Source: an uncultured Pelagibacteraceae bacterium (GTDB taxonomy: Bacteria; Pseudomonadota; Alphaproteobacteria; Pelagibacterales; AG-422-B15). Taken from it: DNA of 64,000 nucleotides. The stretch is from the NCBI GenBank assembly GCA_902524795.1, contig CABZEU010000004.1, positions 7,380 to 71,379 on the forward strand, given 5' to 3'. A program made the position numbers and the translations under genes. Within the stretch, counting starts at the first letter, position 1. Every line of letters starts with the position of its first letter. The notes beneath the pieces are model-generated. The model did not search any database. It saw nothing but the letters and a program-made list of their open reading frames with translations, and had not been told where the DNA came from. Below, piece by piece: positions 6,397 through 44,562 of the stretch.

Positions 6397-7419
6397 TTAG
6401 TTATATGGATCCTCAATCTTTCTTGCAAGTTCCTCAATATTTTCGGGTGGCCAATTTGGTACTTCCATGCCAAGGTAAAGAGACATAGTTCCTAAAACTT
6501 CTTTAATTTCGTTAAGTGACTTTCTACCAAAATTTGGTGTTCTTAACATTTCAATTTCACTTTTTTGGACAAGATCGCCTATGTAGATTATATTATCGTT
6601 GCGAAGACAATTCATTGACCTCACAGAAAGTTCGAGTTCTTCAACCTTTCTTAATAAGTTTTTATTAAATTGGGGCTCTAAAGTATCAGGCTCCTCTTGT
6701 ATTTCTTCAGGCTCTTCAAAATTAATAAAAGACTGAAGTTGGTCCTGAATGATCCTTGCTGCAAAAGCAATAGCGTCATCAGGTGTTACTGATCCATTGG
6801 TTTCAATGGTAAGAATTAATTTGTCATAATCTAAAACTTTTCCTTCTCTTGTATTTTCAATACTGTATGACACTTGTTTTACTGGACTAAAGATTGAGTC
6901 AATAGGTATTAATCCTATGGCAGAGTCTTCAGGTTTATTATGCTCAGCAGCAACATAACCTTTTCCTTTAGCTACAGTTAATTCCATATTGAATTCTGTA
7001 TTATCATCTAGGTTACATATTACTAATTCAGGGTTTATAATATCTATCTCTGAAGGCGTATTAATCATACCCGCTGTAATTTCACCTGGACCTGTTACAT
7101 TCAAGTTCATCTTTCTGACCCCCTCTGAATGCATATTTAAAGATAAAGATTTAATATTCAAAACAATATCAGTAACGTCTTCACGAACACCATCTATAGA
7201 AGAAAATTCATGAAGGACATTGTCTATTTTAATAGCCGTAACTGCGGTGCCTTGCAACGAAGATAAAAGAACCCTTCTTAAAGCATTGCCTAAAGTTAAT
7301 CCAAAACCTCTTTCTAAAGGTTCTGCTACTAAGGTAGCTTTATACTGCGAGTTTTCATCGTTCGTTAATTTCAATTTAGATGGCTTAATTAATGTTTGCC
7401 AATTATTTATTATACTCAT
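6397..7419 (-). CDS. rpoA: RNA polymerase alpha subunit
   Basis: [45 protein letters not shown]. Confidence 0.98.
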
Positions 7420-35020: not shown

Positions 35021-35794
35021 ATGAGGAATAGATTTAAAAAACTCCCTAAAAAAAGGCAAAATTCAGACTACTGGATTTATGGCCATCATGCTGTTGTTGG
35101 CGCTATAAATAATAATAATAGAATAAAATATGAAATAAACTTCACAATTGAAGCAGAAAAAAAGCTCTTTCAAGAAGTAGACATAAAAGAACTCAAATTT
35201 GCCAGGAGACATAGATCGAGAGAAGAAATTGAAAATCTACTAGGAGGCATTTCAAATCATCAAGGGATTTGCCTCAAAGTAGAAAAGCTTAAAGTGCCCG
35301 AGCTTAATGAAATTTTGGATAATTGTAATAAGGAACACTCAATCATTGTCTTATTAGATCAGCTTGAAGACTCACAAAATGTAGGAGCAATTTTTCGTTC
35401 CGCCCTAGCATTTAAACTAGACGGAATAATACTGACTCAAGATAACTCTGTAAGTGAAAATTCATTTTTAACGAAAGCTGCATCTAGTGGAGTTGATAAA
35501 GTTCCTTTTACAAAAATTAAAAATATAAGTTCTTGTATAAAAAAATTAAAACAATCTGGATATTGGATTTATGGCTTAGAAATGAATGCTGGTAAATCTT
35601 TAAAAGAAACAAAATTTCCTAAGAAGGTAGTAATTATTCTAGGTTCAGAAAATAAGGGCCTTAGGAAAATTACTACTTCACTATGCGATGAAATAATCAA
35701 AATTGATATAAGTGGTGAATTGGAAAGTTTAAATGTATCCAATACTGCTGCGATTGCATTTTATGATATTTCTAACTCAATTCTAAAGAGCTAG
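35021..35794 (+). CDS. rlmB: 23S rRNA 2'-O-methyltransferase RlmB (SPOUT/TrmH family)
   Basis: IYGHHAV, HQGI, DSQNVGAIFRS, GSENKGL, ESLNVS; usual alphaproteobacterial position between tRNA-Tyr and tRNA-Thr. Confidence 0.88.
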   Translation: MRNRFKKLPKKRQNSDYWIYGHHAVVGAINNNNRIKYEINFTIEAEKKLFQEVDIKELKFARRHRSREEIENLLGGISNHQGICLKVEKLKVPELNEILDNCNKEHSIIVLLDQLEDSQNVGAIFRSALAFKLDGIILTQDNSVSENSFLTKAASSGVDKVPFTKIKNISSCIKKLKQSGYWIYGLEMNAGKSLKETKFPKKVVIILGSENKGLRKITTSLCDEIIKIDISGELESLNVSNTAAIAFYDISNSILKS

Positions 35795-35952: not shown

Positions 35953-36028
35953 GCCCCTATAGCTCAATTGGTAGAGCAATTGATTTGTAATCAATAGGTT
36001 CGCGGTTCAAGTCCGTGTGGGGGCACCA
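35953..36028 (+). tRNA. tRNA-Thr (TGT)
   Basis: GCCCCTATAGCTCAATTGGTAGAGCAATTGATTTGTAATCAATAGGTTCGCGGTTCAAGTCCGTGTGGGGGCACCA. Confidence 0.96.
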
Positions 36029-36043
36029 CTTAAATTAAAAAAT

Positions 36044-36643
36044 CTATTTCTCATCAATTACCCAGGCATAAACCTCTCCCTTTTTATGATGAGGGTGAAT
36101 TAAATTATTAAACTTATGTTGGTATTTTTCTGAAAATTTACAAAAATGCCTTTCAGCAAGAACTTCAAAGCAATCAATTGCAATGTCTAAAGGCCACTCA
36201 TCATAGTCATATCCATAAATCATTATGACCTTTTTGCCTTGGAACCCTGAGTTAAGTAATTTTTTTATATCACCTAAAACACTTCCATCTCCTTCATACG
36301 GGGATAATAAATCAACCATTATAAATTCCTCAGGAGTGCCATTATTTCGAAGTCTTCTCATTGCTTTAGCTTCAATAAAATAATTATTTTCATCAGACTG
36401 CCAGTAAATATCCAGCTTCTTTCTGCTTAAGTTTGGATATTTTTCTTCAGTTACAATCGAATCAAATATTTGATTTTGATTTTTCATTTCATCTGTAACC
36501 ATTTTAATTAATTTTTTCTCCTGAAATGGTCCGATGCCGGGTGAATACTTTATATCTGGTTTTCTTGCATTGGAAGCTTGGGGCGCTTTAGCGTCAACTA
36601 TCTCTATACATTTTGCAAAATGGCTAATGAATTCCGAAATCAT
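36044..36643 (-). CDS. Hypothetical protein, putative PD-(D/E)xK nuclease fold
   Basis: Helix E42, E66-x-x-YP, strand D78, IE91AK93, later DIKKL; 199 aa. Confidence 0.6.
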   Translation of the reverse strand: MISEFISHFAKCIEIVDAKAPQASNARKPDIKYSPGIGPFQEKKLIKMVTDEMKNQNQIFDSIVTEEKYPNLSRKKLDIYWQSDENNYFIEAKAMRRLRNNGTPEEFIMVDLLSPYEGDGSVLGDIKKLLNSGFQGKKVIMIYGYDYDEWPLDIAIDCFEVLAERHFCKFSEKYQHKFNNLIHPHHKKGEVYAWVIDEK

Positions 36644-36757
36644 ACTAAGTAAATATTACTCCGAAAAAATACAAAACAAAAGTTGTGATAAAATTTAACC
36701 CAAAAATACTTATTCTATCATTTTATGCTTTACAATCCCAACACCGCTAGACTGCGT

Positions 36758-36810
36758 GCAATTGATTTGTAATCAATAGATTCGCGGTTCAAGTCCGTGT
36801 GGGGGCACCA
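36758..36810 (+). repeat. Partial tRNA-Thr duplicate (3' 53 nt including anticodon arm, T arm and CCA)
   Basis: GCAATTGATTTGTAATCAATAGATTCGCGGTTCAAGTCCGTGTGGGGGCACCA; one G>A difference from the intact tRNA; 5' acceptor strand and most of the D arm missing. Confidence 0.95.
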
Positions 36811-36822
36811 TTTAAAATTTAT

Positions 36823-37449
36823 CTAGTCTGTATAACCGTTAATTGACTTAGTCGTAGGACTTTTTGTAATAGATTTATTATCTTTTAGGGTTTTAAAAAA
36901 ATAATCACCAATCATGTTGGTTATGCCCCAATTATAATTTTCATTATGAAAGTGGTGGCTCATATGTGCATCACGAAGACTTTTGCCGACTTTAGTTATA
37001 GGTTTATAGTTTTTTGAATGGTGTGCTAAGTGGATCCACTCGTACCAAAGATGGTAAATCAGATGTCCGGTAAATGGGACGATAGCTGCACCAAAGCTCC
37101 AAAAAATTAATGAGTAAAACAAATAAACCTGACCATATGTATAGATTAAATATCTCCAAGGTGCGAACTGGAGTTTTATATTATCAGGATCTCGATGATG
37201 TCCATGATGAAGAACTATTTGGTATCTTCTATACCAACCATCTTTCTTTGTAAGCTCAACGTGTAACTGATATTTGTGAACATACCATTCATAAAATGGA
37301 GCAAGAAGTATTGGAATAAATATCCAGATTAAATAGTCATTTATAAGACCTGTATTAAATATATAAAATACGCCTAATACAGCCATCAGTATAAAGCCTA
37401 CTACGGTTGAGTGAGAAAAATAATTTTTGAATACAGTACTCATATTCAT
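36823..37449 (-). CDS. Fatty acid hydroxylase / sterol desaturase superfamily membrane di-iron enzyme
   Basis: His boxes EWYVHKYQLH, LHHGHH, YEWIHLAHH, HMSHH plus TM helices. Confidence 0.85.
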   Translation of the reverse strand: MNMSTVFKNYFSHSTVVGFILMAVLGVFYIFNTGLINDYLIWIFIPILLAPFYEWYVHKYQLHVELTKKDGWYRRYQIVLHHGHHRDPDNIKLQFAPWRYLIYTYGQVYLFYSLIFWSFGAAIVPFTGHLIYHLWYEWIHLAHHSKNYKPITKVGKSLRDAHMSHHFHNENYNWGITNMIGDYFFKTLKDNKSITKSPTTKSINGYTD

Positions 37450-43673: not shown

Positions 43674-43761
43674 TGGTGGCCTCACCCGGACTCGAACCGG
43701 GACGGGAATAAATCCCAAAGGATTTTAAGTCCTTTGCGTCTACCAATTCCGCCATGAGGCC
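43674..43761 (-). tRNA. tRNA-Leu (TAA)
   Basis: Reverse complement GGCCTCATGGCGGAATTGGTAGACGCAAAGGACTTAAAATCCTT, long variable arm, GGTTCGAGTCCGGGTGAGGCCACCA. Confidence 0.95.
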
Positions 43762-43820
43762 AATTGTTTTATTTTATAACTATTTATTTACTGAACTACT
43801 AGTTCTTTAGTGTTTTGAAT

Positions 43821-43849
43821 AAAAAAAAAGGGGCCCGAAGGCCCCTTTT
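43821..43849 (-). terminator. Rho-independent terminator of proteorhodopsin
   Basis: Minus strand AAAAGGGGCC-TTCG-GGCCCC-T9: UUCG tetraloop and U-tract. Confidence 0.9.
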
Positions 43850-43869
43850 ATTATCTGCTTTACAGAAAC

Positions 43870-44562
43870 TTAATTGCTGTCTGATACTGCAGCTACATAA
43901 ATAGCCATACCAAATGCAATTTTGTTAACAAAGTCAGCAAGGTTATAGATTAAGTTCAGTGAACCAGCGTCTACGCCACCACCAAAGTAACCTACTGCAT
44001 AACCTATTGGATAAATCGCCCAACCTACTGTAACGATCAATCTCAACGCGTTGAACGCAGCTTGACCAGCAGCGTTTCCACTACCAGCACTTGCTTTGCT
44101 TGCTTCGCCTGCAAAAACTTCATAGATGATGTATATCCATCCAGCCATTCCTATAGCGAAGGCTAGACCTACATTCATTGCTCCAATTTCACCTAAATAA
44201 CCACCAACCAACATTACTATTGATGCGATTAACAGTCTCCAGAATAAACCTGAAGCAACAGCAGTGATTGCTGCAAGAATTACATAGAACTCTACAATTT
44301 GCAGAGGCACCGTAATCAACCAGTCAACGTATCGAAGAACTGTTGGTGAGTCACCAGTCGCAACCCATACTTCTCTCATGTAGAAATAGTGCCACGCTGC
44401 AACACCAGTAACCAAACCAGCTACTGTGAGGGACGTCTTCCATTTAGCTGCTACTCTGTCTCTCTCAAGAAAAAAGAAAGCTGTAGCGGCAACCATGGCC
44501 ATAGAGATTAACCAAAACGATATGGCAACTTGATCTCCGGGATTTAGCATTAATACTTTCAT
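43870..44562 (-). CDS. Proteorhodopsin, blue-absorbing type (DTE proton pump)
   Basis: Seven TM helices; helix C RYVDWLITVPLQIVEF (D97/T101/Q105/E108 equivalents), His75 in WHY, retinal Lys in DFVNK. Confidence 0.96.
   Translation of the reverse strand: MKVLMLNPGDQVAISFWLISMAMVAATAFFFLERDRVAAKWKTSLTVAGLVTGVAAWHYFYMREVWVATGDSPTVLRYVDWLITVPLQIVEFYVILAAITAVASGLFWRLLIASIVMLVGGYLGEIGAMNVGLAFAIGMAGWIYIIYEVFAGEASKASAGSGNAAGQAAFNALRLIVTVGWAIYPIGYAVGYFGGGVDAGSLNLIYNLADFVNKIAFGMAIYVAAVSDSN

Follow-up and report, generated by a model that had tools for sequence, protein, structure and literature searches.

How does a single gene come to lie between two copies of the end of a tRNA gene in a SAR11 genome? 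These genomes are noted for the absence of mobile elements, yet they contain hypervariable islands, and how these acquire genes is unclear. The question is raised here by a 782-bp insert next to tRNA-Thr(UGU) in an uncultured Pelagibacteraceae bacterium (GenBank assembly GCA_902524795.1, contig CABZEU010000004.1). The stretch analysed, 64,000 nucleotides long (positions 7,380 to 71,379 of the forward strand), is called the window below, and coordinates refer to it. We find that the insert is a precise site-specific insertion at tRNA-Thr, and that the tRNA-Thr slot is the attachment (att) site of temperate T7-like (HTVC019P-type) pelagiphages, for which the repeated tRNA segment serves as the core of the phage site (attP). 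The parts of the locus are as follows.

35953-36028, plus strand: intact tRNA-Thr(UGU), anticodon tgt, the left attachment site attL (ARAGORN; 100% identical to the tRNA of relatives)
35976-36028, plus strand: att core common to phages, the last 53 nucleotides of tRNA-Thr (exact in 3 viral contigs)
36029-36043: left end of the insert, 15 nucleotides from the tRNA end to the stop codon of the open reading frame (ORF) (left-end alignment)
36044-36643, minus strand: cargo gene, 199 amino acids (ORF list)
36644-36757: region upstream of the cargo gene, 114 nucleotides, with a promoter-like site inside
36735-36757, plus strand: attP flank of phage type (P arm), sequence ATCCCAACACCGCTAGACTGCGT, adjoining the partial tRNA copy on its left (22/23 identical to phage contigs L075 and L073)
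36758-36810, plus strand: partial tRNA-Thr copy, tRNA positions 24-76, the core of the right attachment site attR (one mismatch, G to A at 36779)

A precise insertion at tRNA-Thr

An element inserted at a tRNA gene by a tyrosine integrase is expected to be bounded by a repeat of a tRNA segment, with the intact tRNA rebuilt at one end, and this is what is observed. A repeat search returned a direct repeat of 59 nucleotides (35976-36034 and 36758-36816), its copies 782 nucleotides apart and differing at 2 positions. Its tRNA part, which runs from the anticodon stem to the CCA end, is 52/53 identical and is followed by 6 more bases with one further mismatch. An initial annotation, made from the sequence alone, had described the 3' 53 nucleotides of tRNA-Thr as recurring 782 bp downstream with one mismatch, and had placed between the copies just a 600-bp ORF facing the tRNA and an upstream region of about 115 bp; both descriptions are accurate. 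The 199-amino-acid gene is the sole ORF of at least 60 amino acids in the insert, the overlapping antisense ORFs being merely 52 and 54 amino acids long. The G+C content of the insert shows no contrast with its surroundings.

If the insertion is precise, its removal is expected to recreate an empty site. Deleting the 782 bp restores the empty junction of a relative, G065, with 118/120 positions identical, the flanks being otherwise 90.5% and 92.0% identical. The initial annotation had also read the repeat as the attL/attR pair of a tyrosine-integrase system, and both the empty sites of relatives and the existence of phages with this att support that reading. A tandem tRNA pseudogene or tRNA gene duplication was considered as well; it is ruled out by the phage flank and the empty sites.

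The window genome (1.11 Mb; window on contig C4) is fragmentary, with 35 contigs and 80% completeness, and a repeat could in principle have been made by mis-joining in the assembly of a single-cell genome. This explanation is extremely improbable. The interior of the cassette is covered with few differences by contigs from 3 metagenome runs belonging to 3 studies (for example, a 768-nucleotide contig across 36012-36779 with 7 differences), and these contigs run from the interior into both att copies. In addition, the repeat is merely 53-59 nucleotides long, and a like architecture is present in 16 relatives. The metagenome comparison was made with assembled contigs, not raw reads, and these contigs end inside the att repeats; among them, no joint showing an empty site for the window lineage was found. 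One contig in X2 joins 36029 back to 35988 at a depth of 4.4, a join that is not interpretable and possibly derives from another organism. Depth is 4-9 in the cassette and tens to hundreds in the flanks, values that cannot be used to rank abundance.

The repeat is the attachment site of temperate pelagiphages

The 53-nucleotide core occurs exactly in 3 IMG/VR contigs that lack any tRNA gene. In one of them, L075, it lies 78 nucleotides after the gene for a 306-amino-acid tyrosine integrase and 86 nucleotides before the gene for an 814-amino-acid T7-type RNA polymerase, and the identity of both proteins on the phage contigs was confirmed with Pfam. A search with a 34-nucleotide core yielded 11 viral loci. 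The order regulator, integrase, attP, RNA polymerase is found in six of these, two show RNA polymerase and attP at a contig end, and the remaining three belong to other viruses, in which a full-length tRNA-Thr-like gene is present. These three (IMG/VR contigs L088, L091 and L093) are of another virus type, in which positions 7-76 of the tRNA-Thr-like gene are 98.6% identical to the host tRNA. Both sides of attP are visible in 6 phage contigs, and in none of these does an ORF lie between integrase, attP and RNA polymerase. Among named integrases, the closest come from Pelagibacter phages HTVC109P, 021P, 121P and 019P, at 38-40% amino acid identity.

A tyrosine integrase, an attP between the integrase and RNA polymerase genes, and a host site (attB) in a SAR11 tRNA are features of HTVC019P-type phages, the position of attP being a published hallmark of the group (10.1101/410191, in the text accessible). 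The targets published there are tRNA-Cys, tRNA-Leu and tRNA-Arg; tRNA-Thr occurs 0 times in the text (10.1101/410191). Sequences identical to SAR11 tRNA-Thr are reported in integrase-bearing environmental relatives of HTVC106P, according to the accessible part of another study (10.1101/2019.12.14.876532). Here, integrase-bearing phage contigs contain the 53-nucleotide core exactly, together with 22/23 positions of the flank found in the window. The initial annotation had suggested searching phages for an integrase with this att; such phages exist, as L075-type contigs with the integrase next to attP.

A resident phage is also seen at the site. In the relative G003, the slot is filled by 24 kb of a T7-like phage, which begins with RNA polymerase, continues with tail and internal virion genes and reaches the contig end. 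Next to the hydroxylase gene that borders the slot on the right, this prophage is closed by a partial tRNA copy (attR); its integrase end is unassembled. The window differs from such an HTVC019P-type prophage in that it has no phage genes, just att and its flank, whereas G003 does carry them.

Another tRNA gene of the window, tRNA-Leu(taa), stands beside a 230-amino-acid membrane ORF that looks rhodopsin-like by eye (43674-44562). tRNA-Leu(TAA) is the published attB of HTVC105P/109P/119P (10.1101/410191, in the text accessible). No partial copy of tRNA-Leu(taa) was found in the window genome.

The content of the slot varies among relatives

In a survey of the genus, 47 genomes were searched with the tRNA plus 6 nucleotides; 38 matched, including the window genome, and the loci of the 37 relatives were compared. 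They fall into five classes.

No insert: 10/37 relatives
One to four units, each closed by a partial tRNA copy: 16/37 relatives
Insert of 313-576 nucleotides without a recognisable repeat: 6/37 relatives
T7-like prophage: 1/37 relatives (G003)
Slot cut by contig ends: 4/37 relatives

The initial annotation had named empty sites, other cargo genes and tandem cassette arrays as the variants to look for, and all three are found. At nine of the 10 empty sites, the stop codon of the hydroxylase gene lies 8-15 nucleotides past the tRNA; at the tenth, in G028, a prepilin-peptidase-like gene lies 46 nucleotides past it. Where repeats are present (16 loci), partial copies start within tRNA positions 22-30, and three of them are degenerate. 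The longest array, in G019, consists of 4 tandem units with 4 partial tRNA copies, spaced by about 540, 510, 490 and 400 nucleotides. Across the genus, at least 11 distinct cargo ORFs fill the slot, mostly with one small ORF per unit; they range from a common 90-amino-acid protein and several membrane or secreted proteins to a 274-amino-acid HNH endonuclease and the 199-amino-acid protein of the window, and few could be assigned a Pfam family. Units are 0.4-0.9 kb long, have no recombinase of their own and are mixed in gene orientation. With the exception of the G003 prophage, no canonical mobile-element genes were found in the relatives' islands. An order-wide search with the tRNA was also made; the tRNA-Thr of the other family has an identity of about 90%, and the counts obtained cannot separate partial copies from other tRNA-Thr genes. 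The window locus represents a single unit in a variable ('additive') gene island, and the slot gains and loses units.

Variation of this kind could also arise with no site-specific step in the lineage, if the insert had arrived by homologous recombination through the tRNA and hydroxylase flanks or had formed by local duplication of the tRNA end. Conservation of the flanks extends across the genus, and the common 90-amino-acid cassette is found beside two different right flanks, either the hydroxylase gene or the prepilin-peptidase-like gene, as homologous recombination would have it; high recombination is also reported in SAR11 (PMC12374537 and 10.1101/2024.10.30.621061, both as far as their accessible text goes). 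Homologous recombination accounts for the spread of att-bounded units, however, and not for their origin, and the partial copies, which extend from tRNA position 22-30 to the CCA end, have the same limits as the phage attP core. Local duplication, for its part, cannot yield a non-tRNA phage flank beside the copy. An explanation with no site-specific step in this lineage has little probability.

Cassettes carry phage attP arms

The 23 nucleotides that precede the partial copy in the window are not part of a tRNA; 22/23 match the attP flank in L075 and L073, as well as that of another cassette, L080. Flank and core together are 96.2% identical to L075 over 79 nucleotides (blastn), and the attP flank retained in the window cassette corresponds to 23-26 nucleotides of the G003-type phage. 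Because the flank occurs a single time in the window and 0/100 shuffles matched it at up to 3 mismatches, a chance origin of the match is excluded. The same left-arm flank is present at the first partial copy of G019, in the G003 prophage and in the L080 cassette, a 68-amino-acid cassette (record title Pelagibacteraceae) whose flank is 32/40 identical to that of the window.

The other, integrase-side (right) arm of the phage site opens the first units of G019, G036 and G026. The match between G026 and phage L090 is 95.8% over 95 nucleotides and includes the last 37 nucleotides of the integrase frame with its stop codon, after which homology ends abruptly. All three right-arm units lose arm homology within about +86 to +118 nucleotides of the core despite different cargo. 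Unit 1 of G019 comprises about 86 nucleotides of phage right arm, one 100-amino-acid ORF and the phage left arm; it is a complete attP wrapped round a single gene. The first 33 or so nucleotides of the window unit resemble the start of the 90-amino-acid and L080 cassettes (AATTA(T)AAAAA-type), a weak resemblance in a short, AT-rich sequence.

The att region is the sole match between the window and the phage contigs (tblastx). No phage gene remnants were detected inside any cassette by tblastx, the 7 weak matches off the att copies all lying in host genes beyond the island, and no integrase fragment longer than the arm was present in the 37 relatives' loci. For the common 90-amino-acid cassette, the gene was not found in viral contigs, and its att flank had 0 matches in a viral scan.

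The phage-derived flank of the window contains the -35 hexamer (TTGGGA) of a promoter-like site on the minus strand (36741-36712, consensus match). The promoter scan returned 3 sites against 5.9 expected from shuffles, and the flank might be an early promoter element in the phages too, judged by a consensus match no better than chance.

Taken as a whole, the locus records the following event. A small DNA with a phage-type att (the 53-nucleotide core and at least 23 nucleotides of flank) and one gene recombined precisely with the tRNA. Recombination restored an intact tRNA (attL), the 3' tRNA segment that it displaced became attR, and the insert depended on a recombinase that is not encoded in cis.

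Origin of the single-gene units

We prefer to explain the insert as a non-autonomous cassette that a pelagiphage integrase put in place in trans, and give this slightly less than an even chance. Integration, and possibly excision, would be performed by an integrase supplied from an infecting or resident pelagiphage of this att specificity. Crossover would take place in the anticodon stem-loop, the usual pattern of tRNA-targeting integrases, as reportedly described by Williams in 2002. The island would grow by serial integration at the tRNA, and units would be merged or lost through deletion. Spread of units among cells could occur by homologous recombination via the conserved flanks, a step that would be compatible with mobilisation in trans and with descent from a decayed prophage.

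That second possibility is the strongest competitor. A larger integrase-bearing element, either an HTVC019P-type prophage with an extra gene or a small islet of integrase plus cargo, could have been eroded by internal deletion in the streamlined genome to the cargo and the distal att flank, leaving a deletion remnant; this is a serious possibility, though on balance we doubt it. In its favour, a prophage is present at the same site in G003, and the window retains the RNA-polymerase-side flank without the integrase-side arm. A further point is G026, which keeps 95 nucleotides of L090-like arm including the integrase end, fused to an older cassette with loss of the att copy. Similar fusions are seen in G010 and G034; in all three genomes, the proximal unit is joined to the 90-amino-acid cassette at position 21-27 of the latter, with no att copy between. 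Arm-bearing cases are also few. The initial annotation had held that its reading would fall if relatives showed a large integrase-bearing element of which the cassette is a deletion remnant. This is borne out in part, by the 24-kb T7-like prophage of G003 and by the attP flank of that phage type in the window cassette, and a remnant origin is a real possibility.

Several observations nevertheless speak against decay. The 199-amino-acid gene was not found in viral contigs, and the ORF of G019 unit 1 is opposite to the single gene direction of the phage contigs. Small mobile units are favoured because the cassettes contain no phage gene debris and no piece of integrase beyond the arm, because no gene adjoins attP in the six two-sided phage contigs that could have been left behind, and because the right-arm units lose homology at +86 to +118 nucleotides whatever their cargo.

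Mobilisation in trans has its own difficulties. The absence of the cargo gene from viral contigs bears on it as well, and the closest homologue on a longer contig, L076 (82% amino acid identity), lies in another context without att. Integrase activity was not observed, and no circular form or excision product was found among the assembled metagenome contigs, which break inside the att repeat. The island has been reshaped by deletions, as the G026, G010 and G034 fusions with their lost att demonstrate, and a prophage fills the same site in G003. The phage left arm stands at an att copy in just 4/60 family genomes, including that of the window; this is a small sample, and the arm-bearing units may share ancestry. 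The window unit lacks the phage right arm of about 86-95 nucleotides kept by G019, G036 and G026, and it could not integrate on its own if the integrase needs that arm. Finally, a genome that is 80% complete leaves room for an unassembled integrase.

Flanking genes and host recombinases

The slot lies between two genes of ordinary cellular families.

35021-35794, plus strand: left flank, SpoU-type rRNA methyltransferase gene, rlmB-like (Pfam SpoU_methylase, 134 bits)
36823-37449, minus strand: right flank, fatty-acid-hydroxylase-family gene (Pfam FA_hydroxylase, 52.3 bits)

A 2-hydroxyacid dehydrogenase gene follows the hydroxylase gene (Pfam), and an rlmB-like gene is upstream of tRNA-Thr in most relatives. 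In G011, G068, G026 and G028 (loci L037, L049, L065 and L066), the right neighbour is instead prepilin-peptidase-like, followed by secretin-like and ATPase-like genes.

The initial annotation had reported no recombinase gene in the window and had proposed searching the rest of the genome for an integrase. A profile search for the Phage_integrase family gave 2 matches in the window genome, on contigs C13 and C5, scored XerD-like and XerC-like, and none on the window's contig C4; the absence from the window is confirmed, and the genome-wide search recovered solely XerC- and XerD-like enzymes, none of them in cis. The Resolvase family had no match in the window genome. Five relatives were tested in the same way: in 4, both recombinase matches are off the tRNA-Thr contig, and the fifth has none.

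The cargo is a putative nuclease

The cargo gene was not found in 60 relatives, in viral contigs or in a species-representative genome collection. The 199-amino-acid protein has 8 close clusters in an index of 5.8 billion proteins, and a profile search extends the family to 516 representative clusters at 50% identity, among whose members no Pfam family scored above threshold. Among 53 members, the motif D78...E91-x-K93 has an invariant E91, and D78 and K93 are at least 90% conserved. An AlphaFold2 model of the cargo from the family alignment (predicted local distance difference test score, pLDDT, 97.4) has an alpha-beta-beta-beta-alpha-beta core in which helices 42-56 and 122-130 flank strand 76-82, bearing D78, and the next strand, 87-95, bearing E91 and K93. 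PD-(D/E)XK proteins are built on such a core and have a D...(D/E)xK motif on its second and third strands. As modelled, the motif and strand layout of the cargo match this arrangement.

Matches to named families are weak. The SfsA restriction-endonuclease-like domain is hit at E=0.016 by the cargo and at best 0.0011 in 3/53 members (Pfam), PDDEXK_3 at E=0.0014 in 1/53 family members, and the SfsA sequence in PDB at E=0.019 by the cargo. In structural comparison, the best VIA-align Z scores (6.0-6.2) mix restriction-endonuclease-like folds with methyltransferases and Alba-like proteins, and Foldseek returned no match for the cargo at E<=0.001. The nearest named clusters in a protein atlas are MunI-like (0.78) and AccI-like (0.77) restriction enzymes, at values below the level at which such a neighbour is more than a lead. 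PADLOC and PHROGs contain no family for the cargo. Judged by its sequence and model, the cargo is probably a nuclease of PD-(D/E)XK-like type, and its role is possibly defensive.

Nucleotide homology between L076 and the window (79%) is confined to the ORF body and stops 24 nucleotides from the tRNA. In L076 (121-1052), the cargo homologue is followed by an overlapping 112-amino-acid ORF without a Pfam family, which may be a partner gene absent from the window cassette. Pfam searches of the neighbours of two metagenome homologues of the cargo gave nothing useful.

Comparison with known systems

The initial annotation had regarded the locus as an undescribed system. That view did not survive comparison with the literature, since integrase-less SAR11 cassettes with tRNA repeats (PMC11796062) and additive islands (PMC10872708) are described in the accessible portions of two reports. 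Tests for a tRNA-linked cassette island gave a variable site content, partial tRNA repeats in the window and in 16/37 relatives, and no mobile-element genes. The kind of cassette seen here, tRNA-linked and integrase-less, is already published for SAR11 islands: seven islands are at tRNAs, four of them with a partial tRNA repeat, and they have no canonical mobile elements and one integrase (PMC11796062, accessible text). The likeness extends to the organism group. The accessible text of PMC11796062 names no recombinase source or phage att flank, whereas the units here contain single genes, form arrays of up to four and in some cases carry pelagiphage attP arms. This link of SAR11 cassettes to phage att arms appears to be new; no statement of SAR11 cassettes with pelagiphage attP arms was found in full-text literature searches, supplementary files not being covered.

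Related arrangements exist in other plankton. Methylophilaceae are reported to have additive flexible genomic islands in which repeats of a tRNA end recur (PMC10872708, accessible text); there, as here, a fixed tRNA-adjacent site in streamlined plankton gathers cargo between the repeats; their repeat is 20 bp long, compared with about 53 bp plus phage arms here. Cis-mobilizable elements (CIMEs) likewise retain attL and attR after loss of integration and transfer genes, form tandem arrays with related elements at a single att site and need the recombinase of a related element, according to the accessible part of PMC6323972. They are defined there with respect to conjugative elements, whereas the element that shares the att here is a T7-like, lytic/temperate podophage and the units are single-gene; conjugation genes were not searched for.

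Integron cassettes are also single-gene units without a recombinase of their own, arrayed at one site and variable in cargo. The tRNA-Thr locus could by analogy be an integron-like capture slot without a resident integrase, at which single-gene circles with a pelagiphage attP (flank, core and arm) would be inserted and removed by the integrase of infecting or lysogenic T7-like pelagiphages in trans; we regard this stronger proposal as rather unlikely. It departs from the integron in several respects. On the two Xer-like proteins, the integron-integrase model reached 136 and 135 bits, well short of its cut-off of 265. Units are delimited by pieces of tRNA instead of attC sites, have upstream regions of their own and are mixed in gene orientation.

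Repeated tRNA 3' ends were reportedly described in Prochlorococcus islands by Coleman in 2006, and tycheposons by Hackl in 2023. Tycheposons differ in being 4-200 kb long with a tyrosine recombinase of their own (PMC10872708, accessible text), compared with units of 0.4-0.9 kb that have none.

Other tRNA-linked repeats and islands

Partial tRNA repeats are not confined to tRNA-Thr. On contig C6 of the window genome (34487-36646), positions 5-55 of tRNA-Met(cat) are copied 2.0 kb upstream with 96% identity, and the repeat encloses a single 597-amino-acid ORF, a second single-gene unit with its repeat on the 5' side. On contig C11 (37133-37399), tRNA-Met(cat) is followed by 148 nucleotides without an ORF and then by an exact copy of positions 33-74, which looks like an att scar without cargo. 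Because of these two further cases, the phenomenon of tRNA-linked partial repeats is general in the window genome.

The other side of tRNA-Thr is occupied in G068, where a type IV pilus cluster of about 23 kb lies between the rlmB-like gene and the tRNA (contig C1, 163404-187892; loci L049, L085 and L086). It contains many pilin-like genes together with prepilin peptidase-, PilB-, PilC- and PilT-like genes, all named by eye. At its rlmB end, the first half of the tRNA (positions 1-38) is repeated with 100% identity. The 5' side of tRNA-Thr thus looks like an insertion site for a large island as well.

Implications for SAR11 gene turnover

The locus provides a concrete and testable tie between the units of one SAR11 island and the att arms of a defined group of temperate pelagiphages. 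If the units are decayed prophages, it records the speed and completeness with which a streamlined genome erases a prophage while single useful genes are kept. If it acts as a capture slot, each phage encounter could reshuffle a small accessory-gene array, including nucleases, in the ocean's most abundant bacteria. If units are mobilised in trans, infection by phages would directly drive the turnover of accessory genes in SAR11, and that turnover would include candidate nucleases that possibly act against phages.

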